Part shown: one piece after another, positions 3,757 through 46,605 of the stretch
How the letters are laid out: each line of letters opens with the position of its first letter
Numbering within the stretch: position 1 is the stretch's first letter
Source of the DNA: an uncultured Candidatus Actinomarina sp.
GTDB taxonomy: Bacteria > Actinomycetota > Acidimicrobiia > Actinomarinales > Actinomarinaceae
Length of the DNA: 64,000 nucleotides
Assembly (NCBI GenBank): GCA_902578135.1
Contig: CACHBU010000001.1
Location: forward strand, 125,286 to 189,285
Direction: 5' to 3'
Notes under the pieces: generated by a model
Databases searched by the model: none
The model's input: the letters and a program-made list of their open reading frames with translations, nothing else
What the model was told of the DNA's origin: nothing
Program-made: the position numbers and the translations under genes

Positions 3757-4605
3757 ATGACATACTTTAAAAATAAAACAATAATTATGAGCGGAGGCTC
3801 TCGTGGAGTTGGTCTTGAGATTGCAAAAGCGCTTGGCAAAGACGGAGCAAATGTTGCAATTCTAGCGAAAACTACAGAACCACATCCAACACTACCAGGA
3901 ACAATCTTTACAGCTGCAGATGAAATTAAGCAAGTTGGAGGCAATCCACTTCCAATAGTTTGTGATATTAGATTTGAAGATCAAGTAGAGGCAGCTGTTG
4001 AGGAAACAGCAAGTAAATTTGGTGGTATAGATATATGTATCAATAACGCAAGTGCCATACATTTAACTGATACTGTTAATACGCCTATGAAAAGATATGA
4101 CTTGATGCATAACATTAATGTGCGTGGTACTTTTATGCTTAGCCAAAAATGTATACCTCATCTTATTAAAGGAGATAACTCACACATTTTGACGCTTTCA
4201 CCGCCTTTAGATATAGCGAGAAAGTGGTTTGGTATGACTCTTGCTTATACAACTGCAAAGTATGGAATGTCACTTGTTGCACATGGTCTGGCTGAAGAAC
4301 TTGGAAAGCACAATGTTGCATCTAATTGTCTGTGGCCAAGAACTTCACTTGATACCGCAGCTGTAAGAAATGTAATTGGAGAAGAGCTAGTAAAAGGTTC
4401 CAGAAAGCCATCAATATATGCTGATGCCGCATATGCAGTATTAAAAAGAGACTCTTCGTCATGTACCGGTAATTTCTTTTTAGACCAAGATGTACTTGAG
4501 GAAGAAGGCGTTACAGATTTTGATCAGTACGCAATAGACCCAGAGGCAAAGCTAGTATCAGACTTTTTTGTCGATGACAATCCTGATGATTGGATTCAGG
4601 CTTAG
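3757..4605 (+). CDS. short-chain dehydrogenase/reductase, HSDL2-like
   Basis: TIIMSGGSRGVGLEIAKALGKDGANVAILAKT, NNASAI, YTTAKYGMS (Y-x3-K) and a C-terminal FDQYAIDP region; strong resemblance to the hydroxysteroid dehydrogenase-like 2 SDR domain. Confidence 0.8.
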   Translation: MTYFKNKTIIMSGGSRGVGLEIAKALGKDGANVAILAKTTEPHPTLPGTIFTAADEIKQVGGNPLPIVCDIRFEDQVEAAVEETASKFGGIDICINNASAIHLTDTVNTPMKRYDLMHNINVRGTFMLSQKCIPHLIKGDNSHILTLSPPLDIARKWFGMTLAYTTAKYGMSLVAHGLAEELGKHNVASNCLWPRTSLDTAAVRNVIGEELVKGSRKPSIYADAAYAVLKRDSSSCTGNFFLDQDVLEEEGVTDFDQYAIDPEAKLVSDFFVDDNPDDWIQA

Positions 4606-4883
4606 TTACCTAAAAAGTCTATTACGCTTTCCCAGCCTTTTGATTTACCTCTGTAAAACTCTGTATAGTTGCATTCAGAACATGAAATTGCAGTAAATTT
4701 TCTATTCTGGATATTCATAAATCTTGACCAGCTCTTTCCAGTCATAGTAACTACGTCTTCAGAAAAATTAGAAATATCACAATTGTCTTCATTGCAAAAC
4801 ATAGGTTTTTTAAAAGAAGGTATATTTCCTATGGGTTTATTGTCTTTGGATTCATTTTGTTTAGGGTATCTATCTTCATTCAT
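4602..4883 (-). CDS. small Zn-ribbon protein (DUF2082/Zn_ribbon_13-like)
   Basis: 93 aa with two Cys pairs (CNEDNC ... CSECNYTEFYRG); the CxxC-NYTEFY pattern matches predicted nucleic-acid-binding Zn-ribbon proteins. Confidence 0.45.
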   Translation of the reverse strand: MNEDRYPKQNESKDNKPIGNIPSFKKPMFCNEDNCDISNFSEDVVTMTGKSWSRFMNIQNRKFTAISCSECNYTEFYRGKSKGWESVIDFLGN

Positions 4884-12220: not shown

Positions 12221-13136
12221 TGTTTAAAAAGCTATTAATCTCTTCTAATAGTTCATCTGCGTGAGTCCACGGAACAGAATGACCGGCATCATTAATAACT
12301 TTCGATTTAACAGTATTTAAACGGTTTATGACTTCATTAGATGTTTCTTCAGGGACTAATTTGTCTTTACCACCAGTAATAACCAATGTGTCAGAATGTA
12401 TTTCATGAATCCAAGGTCTTGCATCATAAGGAACAACAAACCTTCCTCCGTCACCATATATAAAGTCATCTTTTGACCTATGTAAATTATTCCATGCCCA
12501 CTCTGTATACTCATCTTCAATAGATTGGGATTTCCTTAAGAAAGAAAATTTTGATTGAGGATTAAAATTTGGAAAAAGTCTTTCTCGAATTCTTACAAAA
12601 CTTATAAATACCTTAAATGCTATTTTGTCACTATAAACAGCGCCCCCCAGCCAACTAAATGGGGTTATTAAAACTAATTTTCTAATCAAGGATTGTTTTT
12701 TTCTAGCAACAGACATCCCAACAGCGCTTCCCATCGACCAACCAACAATGTCACACTCTTCTATGCCAAGTTTTTCTAGAATGCTTATAACCAGATCAGC
12801 ATTTTCGTCTACATCCCATCTTTTCCAACTTGAATCTGACTTCCCATGATTTCTTAAATCAATTGCAATAAATGAATTTTTATTTTTAATTTTTGGCAAT
12901 ACTTTAAACCAACTACCTAATGAATCAGACCCCCAGCTATGTAGAAAAACAATAGGGGTTGTTCCATCTACGTATGATTCTCTAATAAAGTATTCTTTTT
13001 CCCTTACAAAAATAGTTCTGCCAGGAAACTTACTTGGATGAATTTGAGTATTACCAGAAATATCTCCTTTTTTTGTTTCAAGCAAGTTTTTCAAAATTGT
13101 TGCAAAAGCAAAAAATTTAGTAATTGTTTTTATCAT
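12213..13136 (-). CDS. alpha/beta-fold hydrolase
   Basis: HSWGSDSLGSW oxyanion region, GWSMGSAVG nucleophile elbow (GxSxG), C-terminal His. Confidence 0.7.
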   Translation of the reverse strand: MIKTITKFFAFATILKNLLETKKGDISGNTQIHPSKFPGRTIFVREKEYFIRESYVDGTTPIVFLHSWGSDSLGSWFKVLPKIKNKNSFIAIDLRNHGKSDSSWKRWDVDENADLVISILEKLGIEECDIVGWSMGSAVGMSVARKKQSLIRKLVLITPFSWLGGAVYSDKIAFKVFISFVRIRERLFPNFNPQSKFSFLRKSQSIEDEYTEWAWNNLHRSKDDFIYGDGGRFVVPYDARPWIHEIHSDTLVITGGKDKLVPEETSNEVINRLNTVKSKVINDAGHSVPWTHADELLEEINSFLNNE

Positions 13137-14173
13137 TTGCTATTAATGATATTGGCTTTATTTTTATATCTAGAAACAATATCTCCAATTTCCCATATAT
13201 TTAATCCAAGTCTGTCAGATATATCATCTAAATCAATTGAATTATCATTTGGTGCTGAAATTAGTAAACCACCACTTGTTTGAGCATCTGATAAAATTTT
13301 TACAAAAGATTCTTGATCGTCGCTATAAATTATATTTTCTTTAGCTGAATCAAAATTTCTTTTAGACCCAGAAGGATAAACTCCATTATTCAAATATTCT
13401 TTTGCATGTTCAATAACAGGTACATTATCTAAATAAATATTTACTGTCACTTCAGAATCTCCAATCATTTCTATTAAGTGCCCTAATAATCCAAAACCTG
13501 TGACATCTGTTATTGCATTTGCATTTAATTCTTTGGCAGCTTCCAATGCTTTGTCATTCAATGTTGTCATTACTTCAGTTACTTCAGATATTGCTTTTTC
13601 ACTTGCTATATTCTTTTTTATAGCAGAAGAGATGATTCCAGAACCTAAAGGTTTAGTCAAAAAAAGTTTATCGCCTACTTGAAGATTTCTTTTTTTATAA
13701 ATAGCATCATTAATTATTCCTGTTACAGCAAAACCATACTTTGGCTCTTTGTCGTCGATACTGTGTCCTCCAATGATGCTACAACCAGCACTTTGCATGA
13801 TCTCTAAACCGCCTTTTAAAACCTCAGACAATATTTCAAAACTTAAATCTTCTCTTGGCCATGAAACAAGCTGTAAGGAAGATATTGGGGTTCCGCCCAT
13901 TGCATAAATATCAGATAATGCGTTAGCTGCTGCAACTTTTCCCCAATCAAACGGGTTATCTAATATAGGAGTAAAAAAATCTACAGTCTGAACCACTCTG
14001 ATTCCATTACCAATATCAATTACACCTCCATCATCAGGCGAATCTAGACCGACCAATATTTTTGAAGTATCGGAATTATTTTGTTGTTTAAAATGCGTCA
14101 GTACCTGAGCAAGCTCTTTTTGTGAGAGTTTACATGCTCAACCAGCACCATGTGAGTACTCAGTTAATCTCAT
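13133..14173 (-). CDS. selD: selenophosphate synthetase (selenide, water dikinase), Sec-containing; in-frame UGA at 14138-14140 recoded as selenocysteine
   Basis: The ORF track truncates the gene at TTG (MVGLD...). Reading upstream in the same frame gives ATG(14173) MRLTEYSHGAG-TGA-ACKLSQKELAQVL..., which aligns residue-for-residue with E. coli SelD [25 protein letters not shown] (TGA at the Cys17 position). A GGAGG RBS lies 6 nt upstream. Downstream: VQTVDFFTPILDNPFDWGKVAAANALSDIYAMGG and the AIR-synthase-like fold. Confidence 0.85.
14106..14140 (-). promoter_or_regulatory. SECIS-like hairpin beginning at the selD UGA
   Basis: mRNA UGAGCAUGUAAACUCUCACAAAAAGAGCUUGCUCA: a 6-bp outer stem UGAGCA/UGCUCA and a 4-bp inner stem CUCU/AGAG, starting at the UGA codon itself. 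Confidence 0.45.
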
Positions 14174-21876: not shown

Positions 21877-22077
21877 ATGAGTGGAACATTAACAGCATCA
21901 CAAGTTAAGCCAGGTGTTAGAAGATCAAAAAAATACACCACTGGTAGAGTTTGCGCATTTGAAACTTGTGAGACCGTAATTAGCGTTTATAACAAAAAGA
22001 AATTTTGTTTTCTACATGCTCCTATCTCCTATCCAAGGGTAAGAGGTCATTTGCCAAGAGAACAAGAACCAATTTAA
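21877..22077 (+). CDS. small Cys3His protein, paralog A (unknown function), first gene of dnaK operon
   Basis: 66 aa; RBS AGGAAGG; roughly half of positions identical to the ORF at 46098-46292, with shared blocks GRVC, YNK, CF-HAP, YPRVRG; no terminator before dnaK (27-nt gap). Confidence 0.6.
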   Translation: MSGTLTASQVKPGVRRSKKYTTGRVCAFETCETVISVYNKKKFCFLHAPISYPRVRGHLPREQEPI

Positions 22078-43129: not shown

Positions 43130-43864
43130 CTAATTTATATTTCTTAATATCACATATAAACCAGAAAAAATAGAAAAATAAGTCACTGACGCAGACAGAA
43201 AACTCTGAGAAACTTTAGAAAAAATTAAGCTTGATAGTCTAATTCCTAAAAAAACAAATGGAATATTGATCAATAATAAATAAATGTGATCAATGTAGAT
43301 TCTTCCAGTAAAGGCAAGCAAAGACAAAGTGATTAGTATTCCAATTATAAAAACACTATTTAATGATGGTCTGAATTCGTCTGGATCGGCATCTCGATAC
43401 AGAAGAGCAATTGGAGGGCCTCCTATTGCGGCAATCATTCCAAAAATTCCAGAAAATGTACCTGCAATGAAAGAATTGGTTTTGTTTCTTTTAATTACCC
43501 ATCCAAAAAAAGAAGCTATTCCAGCTAAAAAAACTATTAAACCTACAGAAATAGAAAGATATTTTTCATTTAATATTGATAAAAACAACAAGCCGATTGG
43601 TCCCCCAACAAACCTGCCAGCAACTAAAGGTTTTACTGAACTTAAATCAACTTTATTTCTTTCTCTTATAAATACTCGAATTGCTAATGGTAAACCCAAT
43701 AGTGATAAGAGTTGAGGAACTAACAGTGCTTCAATTTGTACAACTATAGGTGATGCTATAACAGCAAATCCAAATCCTAGTATTCCTTGAACTGATGATC
43801 CTATAAAGATTAATAGAGCAATAAAGATTAATTCAAAAAGGGTTAGGTCAAAAGGTAGACTCAA
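43130..43864 (-). CDS. TSUP/TauE-SafE family membrane transporter
   Basis: 244 aa, 7-8 TM with the internal repeat typical of TauE; TTG start overlapping the selW-like stop (TTGA). Confidence 0.6.
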   Translation of the reverse strand: MSLPFDLTLFELIFIALLIFIGSSVQGILGFGFAVIASPIVVQIEALLVPQLLSLLGLPLAIRVFIRERNKVDLSSVKPLVAGRFVGGPIGLLFLSILNEKYLSISVGLIVFLAGIASFFGWVIKRNKTNSFIAGTFSGIFGMIAAIGGPPIALLYRDADPDEFRPSLNSVFIIGILITLSLLAFTGRIYIDHIYLLLINIPFVFLGIRLSSLIFSKVSQSFLSASVTYFSIFSGLYVILRNIN

Positions 43865-44097
43865 TCAAGCGCTTCTTCTATGAGCTTAAGAATCTCACCG
43901 TCCTCAGTATGTCTACCTAGTTCTTTTTTTGAAAATAATAAATTGTCATCTAGATGGAACTCAAATACTCCTCCACCACTTGGAATTAAATTAATCGAAG
44001 TTACTTTGTTTCCGTAAATTTCTAAGATGTCTTCTATCGTACTAACTGCACGAGGGGTGTAGTTTCAGACTACACAAAACTCTAATTTTATTTCCAT
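43861..44097 (-). CDS. selW: SelW/Rdx-family selenoprotein (CxxU), in-frame UGA at 44065-44067; not in ORF track
   Basis: Minus-strand translation MEIKLEFCVV-U-NYTPRAVSTIEDILEIYGNKVTSINLIPSGGGVFEFHLDDNLLFSKKELGRHTEDGEILKLIEEALD*; a single in-frame TGA at codon 11 inside the diagnostic Rdx CxxU motif; GG-VFE...LLFSKKELG matches the SelW core. Confidence 0.8.
44037..44075 (-). promoter_or_regulatory. candidate SECIS structures for selW-like gene
   Basis: Hairpin GUGUAGU-CUGAA-ACUACAC with the UGA in its loop (44057-44075), then a second hairpin UCGUG-CAGUUAG-UACGA starting ~12 nt after the UGA (44037-44053). Confidence 0.35.
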
Positions 44098-44133
44098 AAT
44101 TTAATAGTATCATAACTTAGATTAAGGAGGCTT

Positions 44134-46032
44134 ATGTTTAACTATTCTAAGGCAAACTTAGAGAGCTTGAATAATGATTTGGATAGCACTTTAGAAGAAT
44201 GTAAAAAATTAGTTGAAAACATAAAGTCATCAACAAACGTTAATTTAAATGATTTTAATGATTTAGAAAGTACAGTTTATGACGTTTCAGGAAGGGTTGC
44301 TTTTCTTGGAGATGTACACCCAGAAGAAAAGATTAGAGATTTTGGAAATGAAGCAGATTCTAAAATACAAAATTTTGCACTTGAACTATTTAATGATGAT
44401 GATCTTTACAAAAAATATAATGAAATTGATATTTCAGATGCAGATAAAGAGAGTATTGAGTTTCACAAAGATTTAGGTATAGATTTTAAAAATGCTGGTC
44501 ATGGTTTGTCAGATGAAAACAGAAATAGGTTAATAGAAATTGATAAAAGGCTTATAGAGCTTGGTATCGCTTTTTCAGAAAATATAGCAAAAGATAAAAC
44601 AGAGCTTAAATTTTCAGAGGTTGAATTACGCGGTTTAAGCAAAAATGAACTTAACAACTTAAAAAAAGATGAAGAAAAATTTATTATTACAATGGCATAT
44701 CCTGATGTAAATGCAATATCTGAGAACTGTAATGTCAGGAACACAAGAGAAATAGTTTGGAAAGCTTTTAATAATCGGGCTGTAGAAAATAATATTCCAA
44801 TCCTTAAAGAAGCTGTTTTGCTAAGAAATGAAAAATCTAAATTGTTTGGATTTGAAACATGGGCTGAATATAGATTGCAAAACAGAATGGCAAAAAATCC
44901 AAAAAATGTTGATGCTATGTATAAAGATTTAATTCCTAAGTTACAAAAAGCTGCTGAGAAAGAAAAAAAAGACCTTGTAATAGATGATATTGAAATTAAT
45001 GATATCTCACCATGGGATATTCGATACTTTATTTCATCAAAAAGAAGCAAAACTAGCAATATAGAAAATAGTGAACTAAAAAAATATTTTTTTATTCATG
45101 ATGTAAAAAATGAAATGTTCAAAGTTTGTGAAGAAGTTTTTGATTTAGAAATTAAGTCAGAATCAAATGAAACTGCGTGGCATGAAGATGTTGAACTTTG
45201 GTCTTTGTGGGAAAAAAATGGTGAGCAACTAGCTTACTTTTATTTAGACCTCTATCCAAGAGAAGGAAAGTTTACCCATGCAGCAGTATTTGATATTTCT
45301 TCTGGTGGTTCCGAAAGGCAAGAGCTACCAGTATGTTCAATGGTCGCAAATTTTCCAAATCCTAATACAGGAGATGGACTTATGACTTTTGATGAAGTTG
45401 AAACCTTGTTTCATGAATTTGGTCATGTCTTACATAATGGAATTGGTAAATCAAAATATACAAGGTTTGTGGGTGCAAATTGTGAGTGGGATTTTGTGGA
45501 AGCTCCTAGTCAGATTATGGAGCACTGGGTTTGGAAAGTAGAGTGCTTAAAAAGGATTTCAAAACATATTGAAACTTCAGAACCATTGTCTGAACAACTA
45601 TGTAAAAAGCTAAACGAATCAAAAAACATTGGAGTTAGTTTGTTGGCATTAAGGCAAGTATCTTTTGGACTTGCTGATCAACATATGCATGGTGAGAATT
45701 TCAATGATGACCTTTTACAAATCGAACAAGCTTCTCAGTTAGTAACTAATATCACCTACCCCAAAGATACAAATCATTTGGCAGCATTTGGTCATTTACT
45801 TGGTGGATATGATGCTGCTTACTATGGATACTTATGGGCAGAAATTATTGGTGATGACTTGTTCAGCAGATTTGAAAATGAAGGAGTGCTTTCAAATTCA
45901 GTAGGTGTTGATTACAAAAATAAGATTCTCAAGCCCGGAGGTACTATTCCTGCAGAAAATATGGTGCAAAGCTTCCTAGGTAGAAAGTGGGATGATGAAG
46001 CTTTTTTATTTCAAAAGAACTTGCTTATTTAA
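44134..46032 (+). CDS. M3 family metallopeptidase (oligopeptidase A / peptidyl-dipeptidase Dcp-like)
   Basis: HEFGHVLHN zinc motif, 632 aa, thimet-oligopeptidase-like architecture; AAGGAGG RBS. Confidence 0.8.
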   Translation: MFNYSKANLESLNNDLDSTLEECKKLVENIKSSTNVNLNDFNDLESTVYDVSGRVAFLGDVHPEEKIRDFGNEADSKIQNFALELFNDDDLYKKYNEIDISDADKESIEFHKDLGIDFKNAGHGLSDENRNRLIEIDKRLIELGIAFSENIAKDKTELKFSEVELRGLSKNELNNLKKDEEKFIITMAYPDVNAISENCNVRNTREIVWKAFNNRAVENNIPILKEAVLLRNEKSKLFGFETWAEYRLQNRMAKNPKNVDAMYKDLIPKLQKAAEKEKKDLVIDDIEINDISPWDIRYFISSKRSKTSNIENSELKKYFFIHDVKNEMFKVCEEVFDLEIKSESNETAWHEDVELWSLWEKNGEQLAYFYLDLYPREGKFTHAAVFDISSGGSERQELPVCSMVANFPNPNTGDGLMTFDEVETLFHEFGHVLHNGIGKSKYTRFVGANCEWDFVEAPSQIMEHWVWKVECLKRISKHIETSEPLSEQLCKKLNESKNIGVSLLALRQVSFGLADQHMHGENFNDDLLQIEQASQLVTNITYPKDTNHLAAFGHLLGGYDAAYYGYLWAEIIGDDLFSRFENEGVLSNSVGVDYKNKILKPGGTIPAENMVQSFLGRKWDDEAFLFQKNLLI

Positions 46033-46097: not shown

Positions 46098-46292
46098 ATG
46101 ACAGACGGATTAAAAGCGAGTCAAATAAAGGGCGGAATTAGGCCATCAAAGAGTTTTGACCAGGGCAGAGTGTGCAAAGATGAATCTTGTAGTACTCAAT
46201 TAAGTATTTATAACAAAAGAGATCACTGCTTCAATCATGCTCCTGTGAAATATCCTAGAGTTAGAGGCAGAATTCTACAAGAAACTGCTTAA
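46098..46292 (+). CDS. small Cys3His protein, paralog B (unknown function), upstream of copZ-copA
   Basis: 64 aa; aligns along its full length with paralog A (GRVC, YNK, CF-HAP, YPRVRG blocks). Confidence 0.6.
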   Translation: MTDGLKASQIKGGIRPSKSFDQGRVCKDESCSTQLSIYNKRDHCFNHAPVKYPRVRGRILQETA

Positions 46293-46386: not shown

Positions 46387-46605
46387 TTGATAATTATGAA
46401 TGTTTTATTTACAGTTCCTGAAATCAGTTGTGGTCATTGTAAGGATACGATTGAATCTACATTAAATAATGTTGAATCAATAGAAAGCGTTTCAGTTGAT
46501 ATTGAGAAAAAATCAGTTGAAGTTATCTCATCTTCTGATTTAGACATGATGAATGTTTCTCAACTGTTAGATGAACAAGGCTACACAGTTGTCCAGTCAG
46601 AATAA
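46387..46605 (+). CDS. copZ: copper chaperone CopZ-like (HMA domain)
   Basis: 72 aa ferredoxin-like HMA fold with an N-terminal CGHC metal-binding pair. Confidence 0.65.
   Translation: MIIMNVLFTVPEISCGHCKDTIESTLNNVESIESVSVDIEKKSVEVISSSDLDMMNVSQLLDEQGYTVVQSE

Follow-up and report, generated by a model that had tools for sequence, protein, structure and literature searches.

SelW-like proteins are the best-known selenoprotein family of marine prokaryotes. They formed the most abundant selenoprotein family of the Sargasso Sea, with 48 genes (PMC1088965), and in 40 GOS samples their selenocysteine (Sec) forms numbered 427 against 56 cysteine (Cys) forms, with SelD the next most widespread (PMC2398784). 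These marine proteins (PF10262, formerly PF05169; TIGR02174) carry an N-terminal CxxU motif in a thioredoxin-like fold of about 80 aa, are encoded with a SECIS hairpin that has a G in its loop, occur more often in the Sec than in the Cys form, and come from the marine surface habitat (PMC1088965, PMC2398784). The bacterial SECIS is described as a stem-loop directly 3' of the UGA whose small apical loop contains a G (PMC1088965, PMC9312934).

For Actinomarina, a 2026 preprint ("Actinomarina, resolved") reported that each of 84 complete genomes carries selA, selC and selD together with a divergent selB, the selD being of the Sec form with the prefix MRLT (bioRxiv 10.64898/2026.04.03.716425). The commonest selenoprotein predicted there (deep-Sep) was an "uncharacterized" protein of 78 aa, found in 59 genomes plus 35 with a variant, and the family was left without a UniRef90 or KofamScan assignment. 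Another group, the third, "matches K07090", a TSUP family transporter according to the supplement, and the predictions had been mapped onto gene calls through same-strand overlap (bioRxiv 10.64898/2026.04.03.716425).

Here we describe a locus in a 64-kb stretch of DNA from Candidatus Actinomarina (the window) for which a sequence-only reading had proposed an unannotated SelW-like selenoprotein gene. The locus very probably holds a functional, SelB/SECIS-decoded selenoprotein gene of this type, whose product would be a CxxU protein with a thioredoxin fold. It shares with the marine SelW-like genes all the features listed above and does not differ from them in kind; what is added is an Actinomarinales host and the constant 4-nt overlap that the gene has there with one for a TauE/TSUP permease. 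The novelty that the sequence-only reading had implied must be given up, because SelW-like proteins are so well known from the sea (PMC1088965, PMC2398784) and the 2026 preprint already lists a 78-aa Actinomarina selenoprotein.

Results

An interrupted reading frame between a permease gene and a peptidase gene

The frame lies on the minus strand, between genes for a TauE permease and an M3 peptidase; both identities had been proposed from the letters of the sequence and were confirmed by Pfam search. The features of the locus are as follows.

43861..44097, minus strand: predicted Rdx/SelW-like selenoprotein CDS, 78 aa, with its ATG at 44097 and its terminal TGA at 43863..43861
44065..44076, minus strand: predicted CxxU redox motif, Cys8-Val-Val-Sec11, with the Sec codon UGA at 44067..44065
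43130..43864, minus strand: TauE/TSUP-family permease gene (PF01925), with a TTG start that overlaps the Rdx stop (TTGA)

Translation of the window gives a frame of 78 codons from 44097 to 43861 with a TGA at codon 11, which reads MEIKLEFCVV*NYTPRAVSTIEDILEIYGNKVTSINLIPSGGGVFEFHLDDNLLFSKKELGRHTEDGEILKLIEEALD* (abbreviated MEIKLEFCVV*NYTPRAV...EEALD*). The ORF list of the window contains no ORF of at least 40 aa in this frame, in agreement with the earlier statement that a TGA-interrupted gene had gone uncalled. The Rdx stop (43863..43861) and the TTG of TauE at 43864 share the letters TTGA, and on the other side the divergent M3-peptidase ORF (632 aa) begins at 44134, which leaves a gap of 36 nt to the Rdx ATG. 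Both the shared stop and the distance to the neighbour had been noted before, and all details of that description of the sequence proved correct.

Relatives of the gene were collected by scanning one genome per species with two search patterns, one of which demanded a Cys codon at the Sec position, so that close Cys-form relatives, if they existed, would have surfaced. The scan found 248 relatives, and the best 80 loci were analysed: 57 from Actinomarinales (Candidatus Actinomarina / OCS155) and the rest from Gemmatimonadota and Chloroflexota. The closest Actinomarinales locus among these best 80 of 248 has 99% protein identity. TGA stands at the equivalent codon in 80 of these 80 loci, across three phyla, and is also kept in a further metagenome lineage outside them (L081). 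Actinomarina contigs of roughly 1 Mb on which the locus is found include JAYQSV010000001.1, JBJKUL010000001.1 and CALSSQ010000001.1.

Family assignment and modelled fold

With Cys placed at the TGA position, the read-through protein matches the Pfam Rdx profile (PF10262) with E=6e-16 and 58.8 bits, against a cut-off of 22.6, and the NCBIfam profile TIGR02174 CXXU_selWTH with 48 bits, against a curated cut-off of 34.2. The 67 residues 3' of the TGA match Pfam Rdx on their own (E=2.4e-10). Chance resemblance to Rdx is ruled out by these two E-values together with the TGA found in all of the best 80 loci. The profile search that the sequence-only reading had suggested for its Rdx/SelW assignment thus exceeds the curated cut-offs of both PF10262 and TIGR02174, and, judged by these matches and by the modelled fold described below, the predicted 78-residue protein is a member of the SelW-like (Rdx) family. 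The top-scoring NCBIfam model was NF041051 SelTWH_Campy, which covered the whole protein with 79.2 bits; as its cut-off is 88, membership of this equivalog was rejected, and the protein is therefore not of the Campylobacter-type subtype.

An AlphaFold2 model of moderate confidence (pLDDT 71), made from database homologues that carry W at the Sec position, has strands at residues 3-9, 32-39, 45-49 and 52-56 and helices at residues 14-28 and 68-83. The modelled topology, beta1-alpha1-beta2-beta3-beta4-alpha2, corresponds to the thioredoxin fold in its Rdx variant. In this model the CxxU motif (C8-V-V-U11) sits at the end of the first strand, ahead of the first helix, and the N-terminal beta-strand ending in CxxU that had been read from the sequence is thereby recovered in the predicted structure.

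When the model was compared with the PDB by Foldseek, the top 21 matches were bacterial SelW-related proteins; MIEN1, mouse SelW and thioredoxins came next. The fold is shared with the solved Cys-form bacterial SelW-related proteins 2fa8 (Atu0228), 3dex (SAV_2001), 2p0g, 2obk, 2ojl and 2oka, which are also the nearest sequences of solved structure, and with mouse SelW (2npb), at Foldseek E-values of 1e-5 to 3e-4 and TM-scores of about 0.57-0.6. The CxxC of these solved proteins lies at the equivalent position, and the G-G-x-F-E motif is common to both sides of the comparison. The bacterial solved entries differ in three respects: their motif is CxxC instead of CxxU, their length is about 100 aa, and their identity to the Actinomarina protein is only 19-27%. 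It had been anticipated that Cys-containing homologues would carry cysteine where the Actinomarina gene has TGA, and the second Cys of the CxxC in the solved homologues 2fa8 and 3dex does fall exactly at that position.

Gene order and overlap with the permease gene

The product of the downstream gene matches the TauE profile (PF01925) with 73.7 bits, against a cut-off of 32.6, over profile positions 2-236 of 237. All 57 Actinomarinales loci share the 4-nt TTGA overlap of this gene with the Rdx gene, at TauE identities as low as 57%, and all share the order Rdx, TauE, lnt, with lnt about 40 nt beyond TauE. This order persists where the upstream M3 peptidase gene is missing, and the same Rdx-TauE arrangement is found on two metagenome contigs (L083 and L084). 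Outside Actinomarinales, TauE is absent from beside Rdx in Gemmatimonadota, Chloroflexota and L081; Gemmatimonadota have a pfkA-like gene downstream, Chloroflexota have a convergent NIF3-like gene, and the neighbours in L081 are unrelated. The permease link is therefore specific to Actinomarinales. The idea of a general functional pair of Rdx and TSUP proteins is unsupported, since the linkage is absent outside that order, and nothing relevant that links TSUP/TauE to selenite or to SelW was found in the literature.

The 36-nt intergenic region (44098..44133) holds the Shine-Dalgarno sequence of the M3 peptidase gene on one strand and a -10-like element of the Rdx gene on the other.

44104..44111, minus strand: extended -10-like element TGaTACTAT, which ends 6 nt before the Rdx ATG

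Each of 36 distinct Actinomarinales upstream sequences contains TGnTAnnnT, with its end 6-7 nt ahead of the ATG; the core TANNNT occupies -12..-7 in 30 of them and lies one base away from there in the remaining 6. No Shine-Dalgarno sequence is present between the -10-like element and the Rdx ATG. In a scan for consensus promoters and terminators, matches were no more numerous than in shuffled sequence. Leaderless mRNAs are common in Actinobacteria, and the Rdx gene probably begins a leaderless transcript, because a conserved -10-like element adjoins its ATG with no Shine-Dalgarno sequence in between. The TTG start of the permease likewise has no evident ribosome-binding site and lies inside UUGA, an arrangement which suggests that translation of the permease is probably coupled to termination of the selenoprotein. 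It is more doubtful whether the putative leaderless Rdx-TSUP unit would make the permease reachable only after Sec insertion, in a selenium-dependent manner, with the two proteins sharing a role in the handling of sulfur/selenium oxyanions (e.g. selenite, sulfite); we hold this to be unlikely.

Predicted RNA hairpins around the UGA

Two small hairpins are predicted in the mRNA near codon 11.

44037..44053, minus strand: predicted SECIS-type minihelix UCGUGC-AGUUA-GUACGA, with a 6-bp stem and a 5-nt loop, 11 nt after the UGA
44057..44075, minus strand: predicted upstream hairpin GUGUAGU-CUGAA-ACUACAC (MFE fold), with 7 bp and the UGA in its 5-nt loop

The minihelix (44053..44037 in the direction of the mRNA) is present in the MFE fold, and RNAalifold gives it as the consensus structure for 51 distinct sequences. 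In a gap-free alignment (A2) of mutually related sequences, the same ones from which the structure was derived, 95.1% of the minihelix cells are standard pairs. The closing pair alternates between U-A (18), C-G (18) and U-G (3), and the fourth pair between U-A (31), G-C (8), G-U (7) and A-U (3); both pairs thus show compensatory change, and at the fourth pair the free third base of an Arg codon varies together with the base opposite it, the first of a Thr/Leu codon. When the 3' partners are shifted by 1-3 columns, pairing is 20-46%, as against 86.6% unshifted, with both helices counted together. The G and U at loop positions 2-3 (G34, T35) are invariant in 52 of 52 sequences of the alignment, although the minihelix lies inside the CDS and the peptide PRAV(S/G)(T/L) could account for part of its conservation. 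When the high-GC phyla are taken alone, RNAalifold favours a hairpin displaced by a few bases.

The minihelix of E. coli fdhF requires a spacing of 11 nt, equal to that of the predicted Rdx minihelix. The sequence-only reading had recommended a search for a SECIS, and a SECIS-type hairpin was indeed found 3' of the UGA by both the MFE fold and RNAalifold; the features of this predicted element within the CDS fit the published description of the bacterial SECIS. Against Rfam, which has no usable bacterial SECIS model, the whole window yielded four tRNAs (three for Ser, one for Arg) and no hit to a SECIS family, a negative that carries no weight.

The upstream hairpin (helix 1) has 79% of its cells paired overall. 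It is kept in Actinomarinales with a swap from G-C to A-U (GTA/TAC vs ATA/TAT), and in the helix comparison it was not kept in Gemmatimonadota. Its loop contains the UGA, and this, together with the conserved UUGA coupling, the TTG start of the permease and the lack of a visible independent Shine-Dalgarno sequence, could also be understood if the UGA mostly terminated translation, so that the 10-codon peptide and the hairpins formed a selenium-sensing leader gating TauE/TSUP, or if the product were N-terminally truncated and started after the UGA. We consider this reading improbable, as the 67 codons after the UGA encode a well-conserved Rdx domain under purifying selection, and the same CxxU gene occurs with no TauE neighbour in Gemmatimonadota, Chloroflexota and L081. 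The truncated product, for its part, would miss strand beta1 and the redox motif, and a conserved start codon 3' of the UGA is absent.

Coding selection and the genetic code

Decoding of the UGA as Sec remains the preferred reading, and the pattern of substitution in the gene bears on it directly. Across 50 distinct Actinomarinales coding sequences, no variation occurs at the ATG, at the TGA of codon 11 or at the terminal TGA, and the additional codon types in codons 1-10 comprise 11 that are synonymous as against 4 additional amino-acid types. Change in codons 1-10 is mostly synonymous, and the region 5' of the TGA is thus translated in the Rdx frame. Frameshifts are absent across the 80 related loci, and selection is purifying on both sides of the TGA. 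Degraded or non-coding orthologues, which the sequence-only reading had named as evidence against itself, were not seen; the orthologous loci are coding.

The 59 ORFs of the window end in TAA (36), TAG (15) or TGA (8) and encode Trp by TGG 242 times, with codon 11 of the Rdx gene as the single in-frame TGA in a count that omitted the N-terminal region of selD, where the other in-frame TGA lies. The genetic code of the window is standard.

Most homologues in the protein databases are 84-91 aa long, read CVVW and continue past the true stop (…ALDWVYLLT). Metagenome gene callers had applied code 4 to short AT-rich contigs (proteins P0001-P0098), and these W-containing homologues are artefacts of such calls, running into the TauE gene region. 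Taken at face value, they would suggest that TGA encodes Trp or Gly in this organism, as in genetic codes 4 and 25, and that the residue is not Sec. This reading has hardly any probability left, given that the CVVW calls run through a true stop as well, that TGA ends 8 of 59 window ORFs and that Trp is TGG 242 times beside one in-frame TGA, that the high-GC Gemmatimonadota and Chloroflexota retain the same TGA, and that homologues have the catalytic Cys at its position; on the stop and Trp codon counts and the cross-phylum TGA, a reassigned TGA was rejected for the window.

Other database entries are C-terminal fragments of 42-67 aa, some of them named "selenoprotein W-related protein", and gene callers otherwise give nothing. 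Such fragments (among them P0103, P0113 and P0114) might be taken for the remains of an Rdx gene, once of the CxxC form, that a TGY-to-TGA nonsense mutation had turned into a decaying pseudogene, a reading that is scarcely credible and was rejected in view of the same TGA in 80 of 80 loci (the best 80 of 248) from three phyla with no frameshifts, the mainly synonymous substitutions flanking it, and the invariant ATG and stop codon.

Actinomarina is a very abundant bacterium of the ocean, yet essentially every public record of it lacks the Rdx gene or has it shortened (42-67 aa) or mistranslated. As a separate observation, contigs of the Actinomarina type that carry Rdx-TauE (L055, L056 and that of protein P0103) were deposited under names that are unrelated, namely Methanobacteriota archaeon, Marinoscillum sp. 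and Flavobacteriaceae bacterium TMED206; mis-binning of these MAG contigs is the probable reason.

selD and other small genes of the window

The sequence-only reading had counted the Rdx codon as the second independent Sec codon of the window, and the other one was located in selD, about 30 kb from the Rdx gene.

13133..14173, minus strand: selD (selenophosphate synthetase), Sec-encoding, with Sec codon 12 at 14140..14138 (MRLTEYSHGAG-U-ACK)

From its start at 14173, selD reads through the TGA into an ORF at 14056..13133, and ORF calling shows only the 307-aa part after the TGA. That part scores 332 bits against the selD profile TIGR00476, and the first 80 aa of the protein align with positions 1-79 of the profile. 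The predicted hairpin of selD is long, with the UGA at its base and the apical loop CACAAAA, in which no GU is obvious; a SelB-binding motif common to both Sec sites is thus not seen.

ARAGORN found no tRNA-Sec in the 64-kb window, and a Pfam scan of its 55 ORFs found selD, with no selA or selB; that Actinomarina has these three is known from the preprint cited above. The scan of all frames for other ORFs readable through a single TGA gave noisy output. The intergenic gaps at 4.6, 21.8 and 46.1-46.6 kb contain no further selenoprotein, and small Cys-rich and CopZ-like ORFs were found there instead.

Two of these ORFs are Cys-rich paralogues, at 21877..22077 (plus strand, 66 aa) and 46098..46292 (plus strand, 64 aa), and share the motif ASQ[IV]K.G[IV]R.SK…GRVC..E.C.T..S[IV]YNK…CF.HAP..YPRVRG. 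One precedes a dnaK-grpE-dnaJ-merR operon, the other precedes copZ-copA, and they may be small zinc-ribbon regulators. The ORF at 46387..46605 (plus strand, 72 aa) is CopZ-like (CGHC) and occupies an otherwise empty gap right before the P-type ATPase gene. Another gap that is otherwise empty holds the ORF at 4602..4883 (minus strand), which encodes 93 aa with two CxxC-type pairs and is zinc-ribbon-like.

Discussion

If the Rdx gene follows the established bacterial Sec pathway, the UGA of codon 11 would be read as Sec: SelB with Sec-tRNA(Sec) would bind the small hairpin 11 nt past the UGA, which has GU in its apical loop, and Sec would be delivered to the ribosome. The product would be a minimal thioredoxin-fold protein, with Cys8-x-x-Sec11 placed between the modelled strand beta1 and helix alpha1. 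By comparison with its family, the Cys8/Sec11 pair would be expected to cycle between the selenol/thiol and the selenenylsulfide state, and the protein would thereby act as a thiol-dependent oxidoreductase. At the level of expression, the Rdx gene would start a leaderless transcript in which the UUGA overlap would couple translation of the TauE/TSUP permease, with lnt as the next gene.

Length and abundance make it almost certain that the 78-aa family of the preprint is the Rdx gene described here: the organism group, the length of 78 aa and the single Sec all agree. What is defined here in addition is its Rdx/SelW-like placement, its predicted SECIS hairpin and its gene context. The preprint's K07090 group may in turn be a mapping artefact, in which the Rdx ORF was assigned to the overlapping permease; we suspect this because the TauE/TSUP ORF (43130..43864) contains no in-frame TGA and the predictions were mapped through same-strand overlap.

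For marine selenoproteomics the gene is an ordinary one, a host-assigned addition to the long-known SelW-like family. It leaves the understanding of selenoprotein mechanism unchanged, and the one lead that is new comes from its overlap with the TSUP permease gene, which is strictly conserved. Its placement gives the commonest "uncharacterized" selenoprotein of Actinomarina a name, as SelW-like, and some of the SelW-like and SelD signal that dominated the selenoproteomes of the Sargasso Sea and GOS may come from Actinomarinales.
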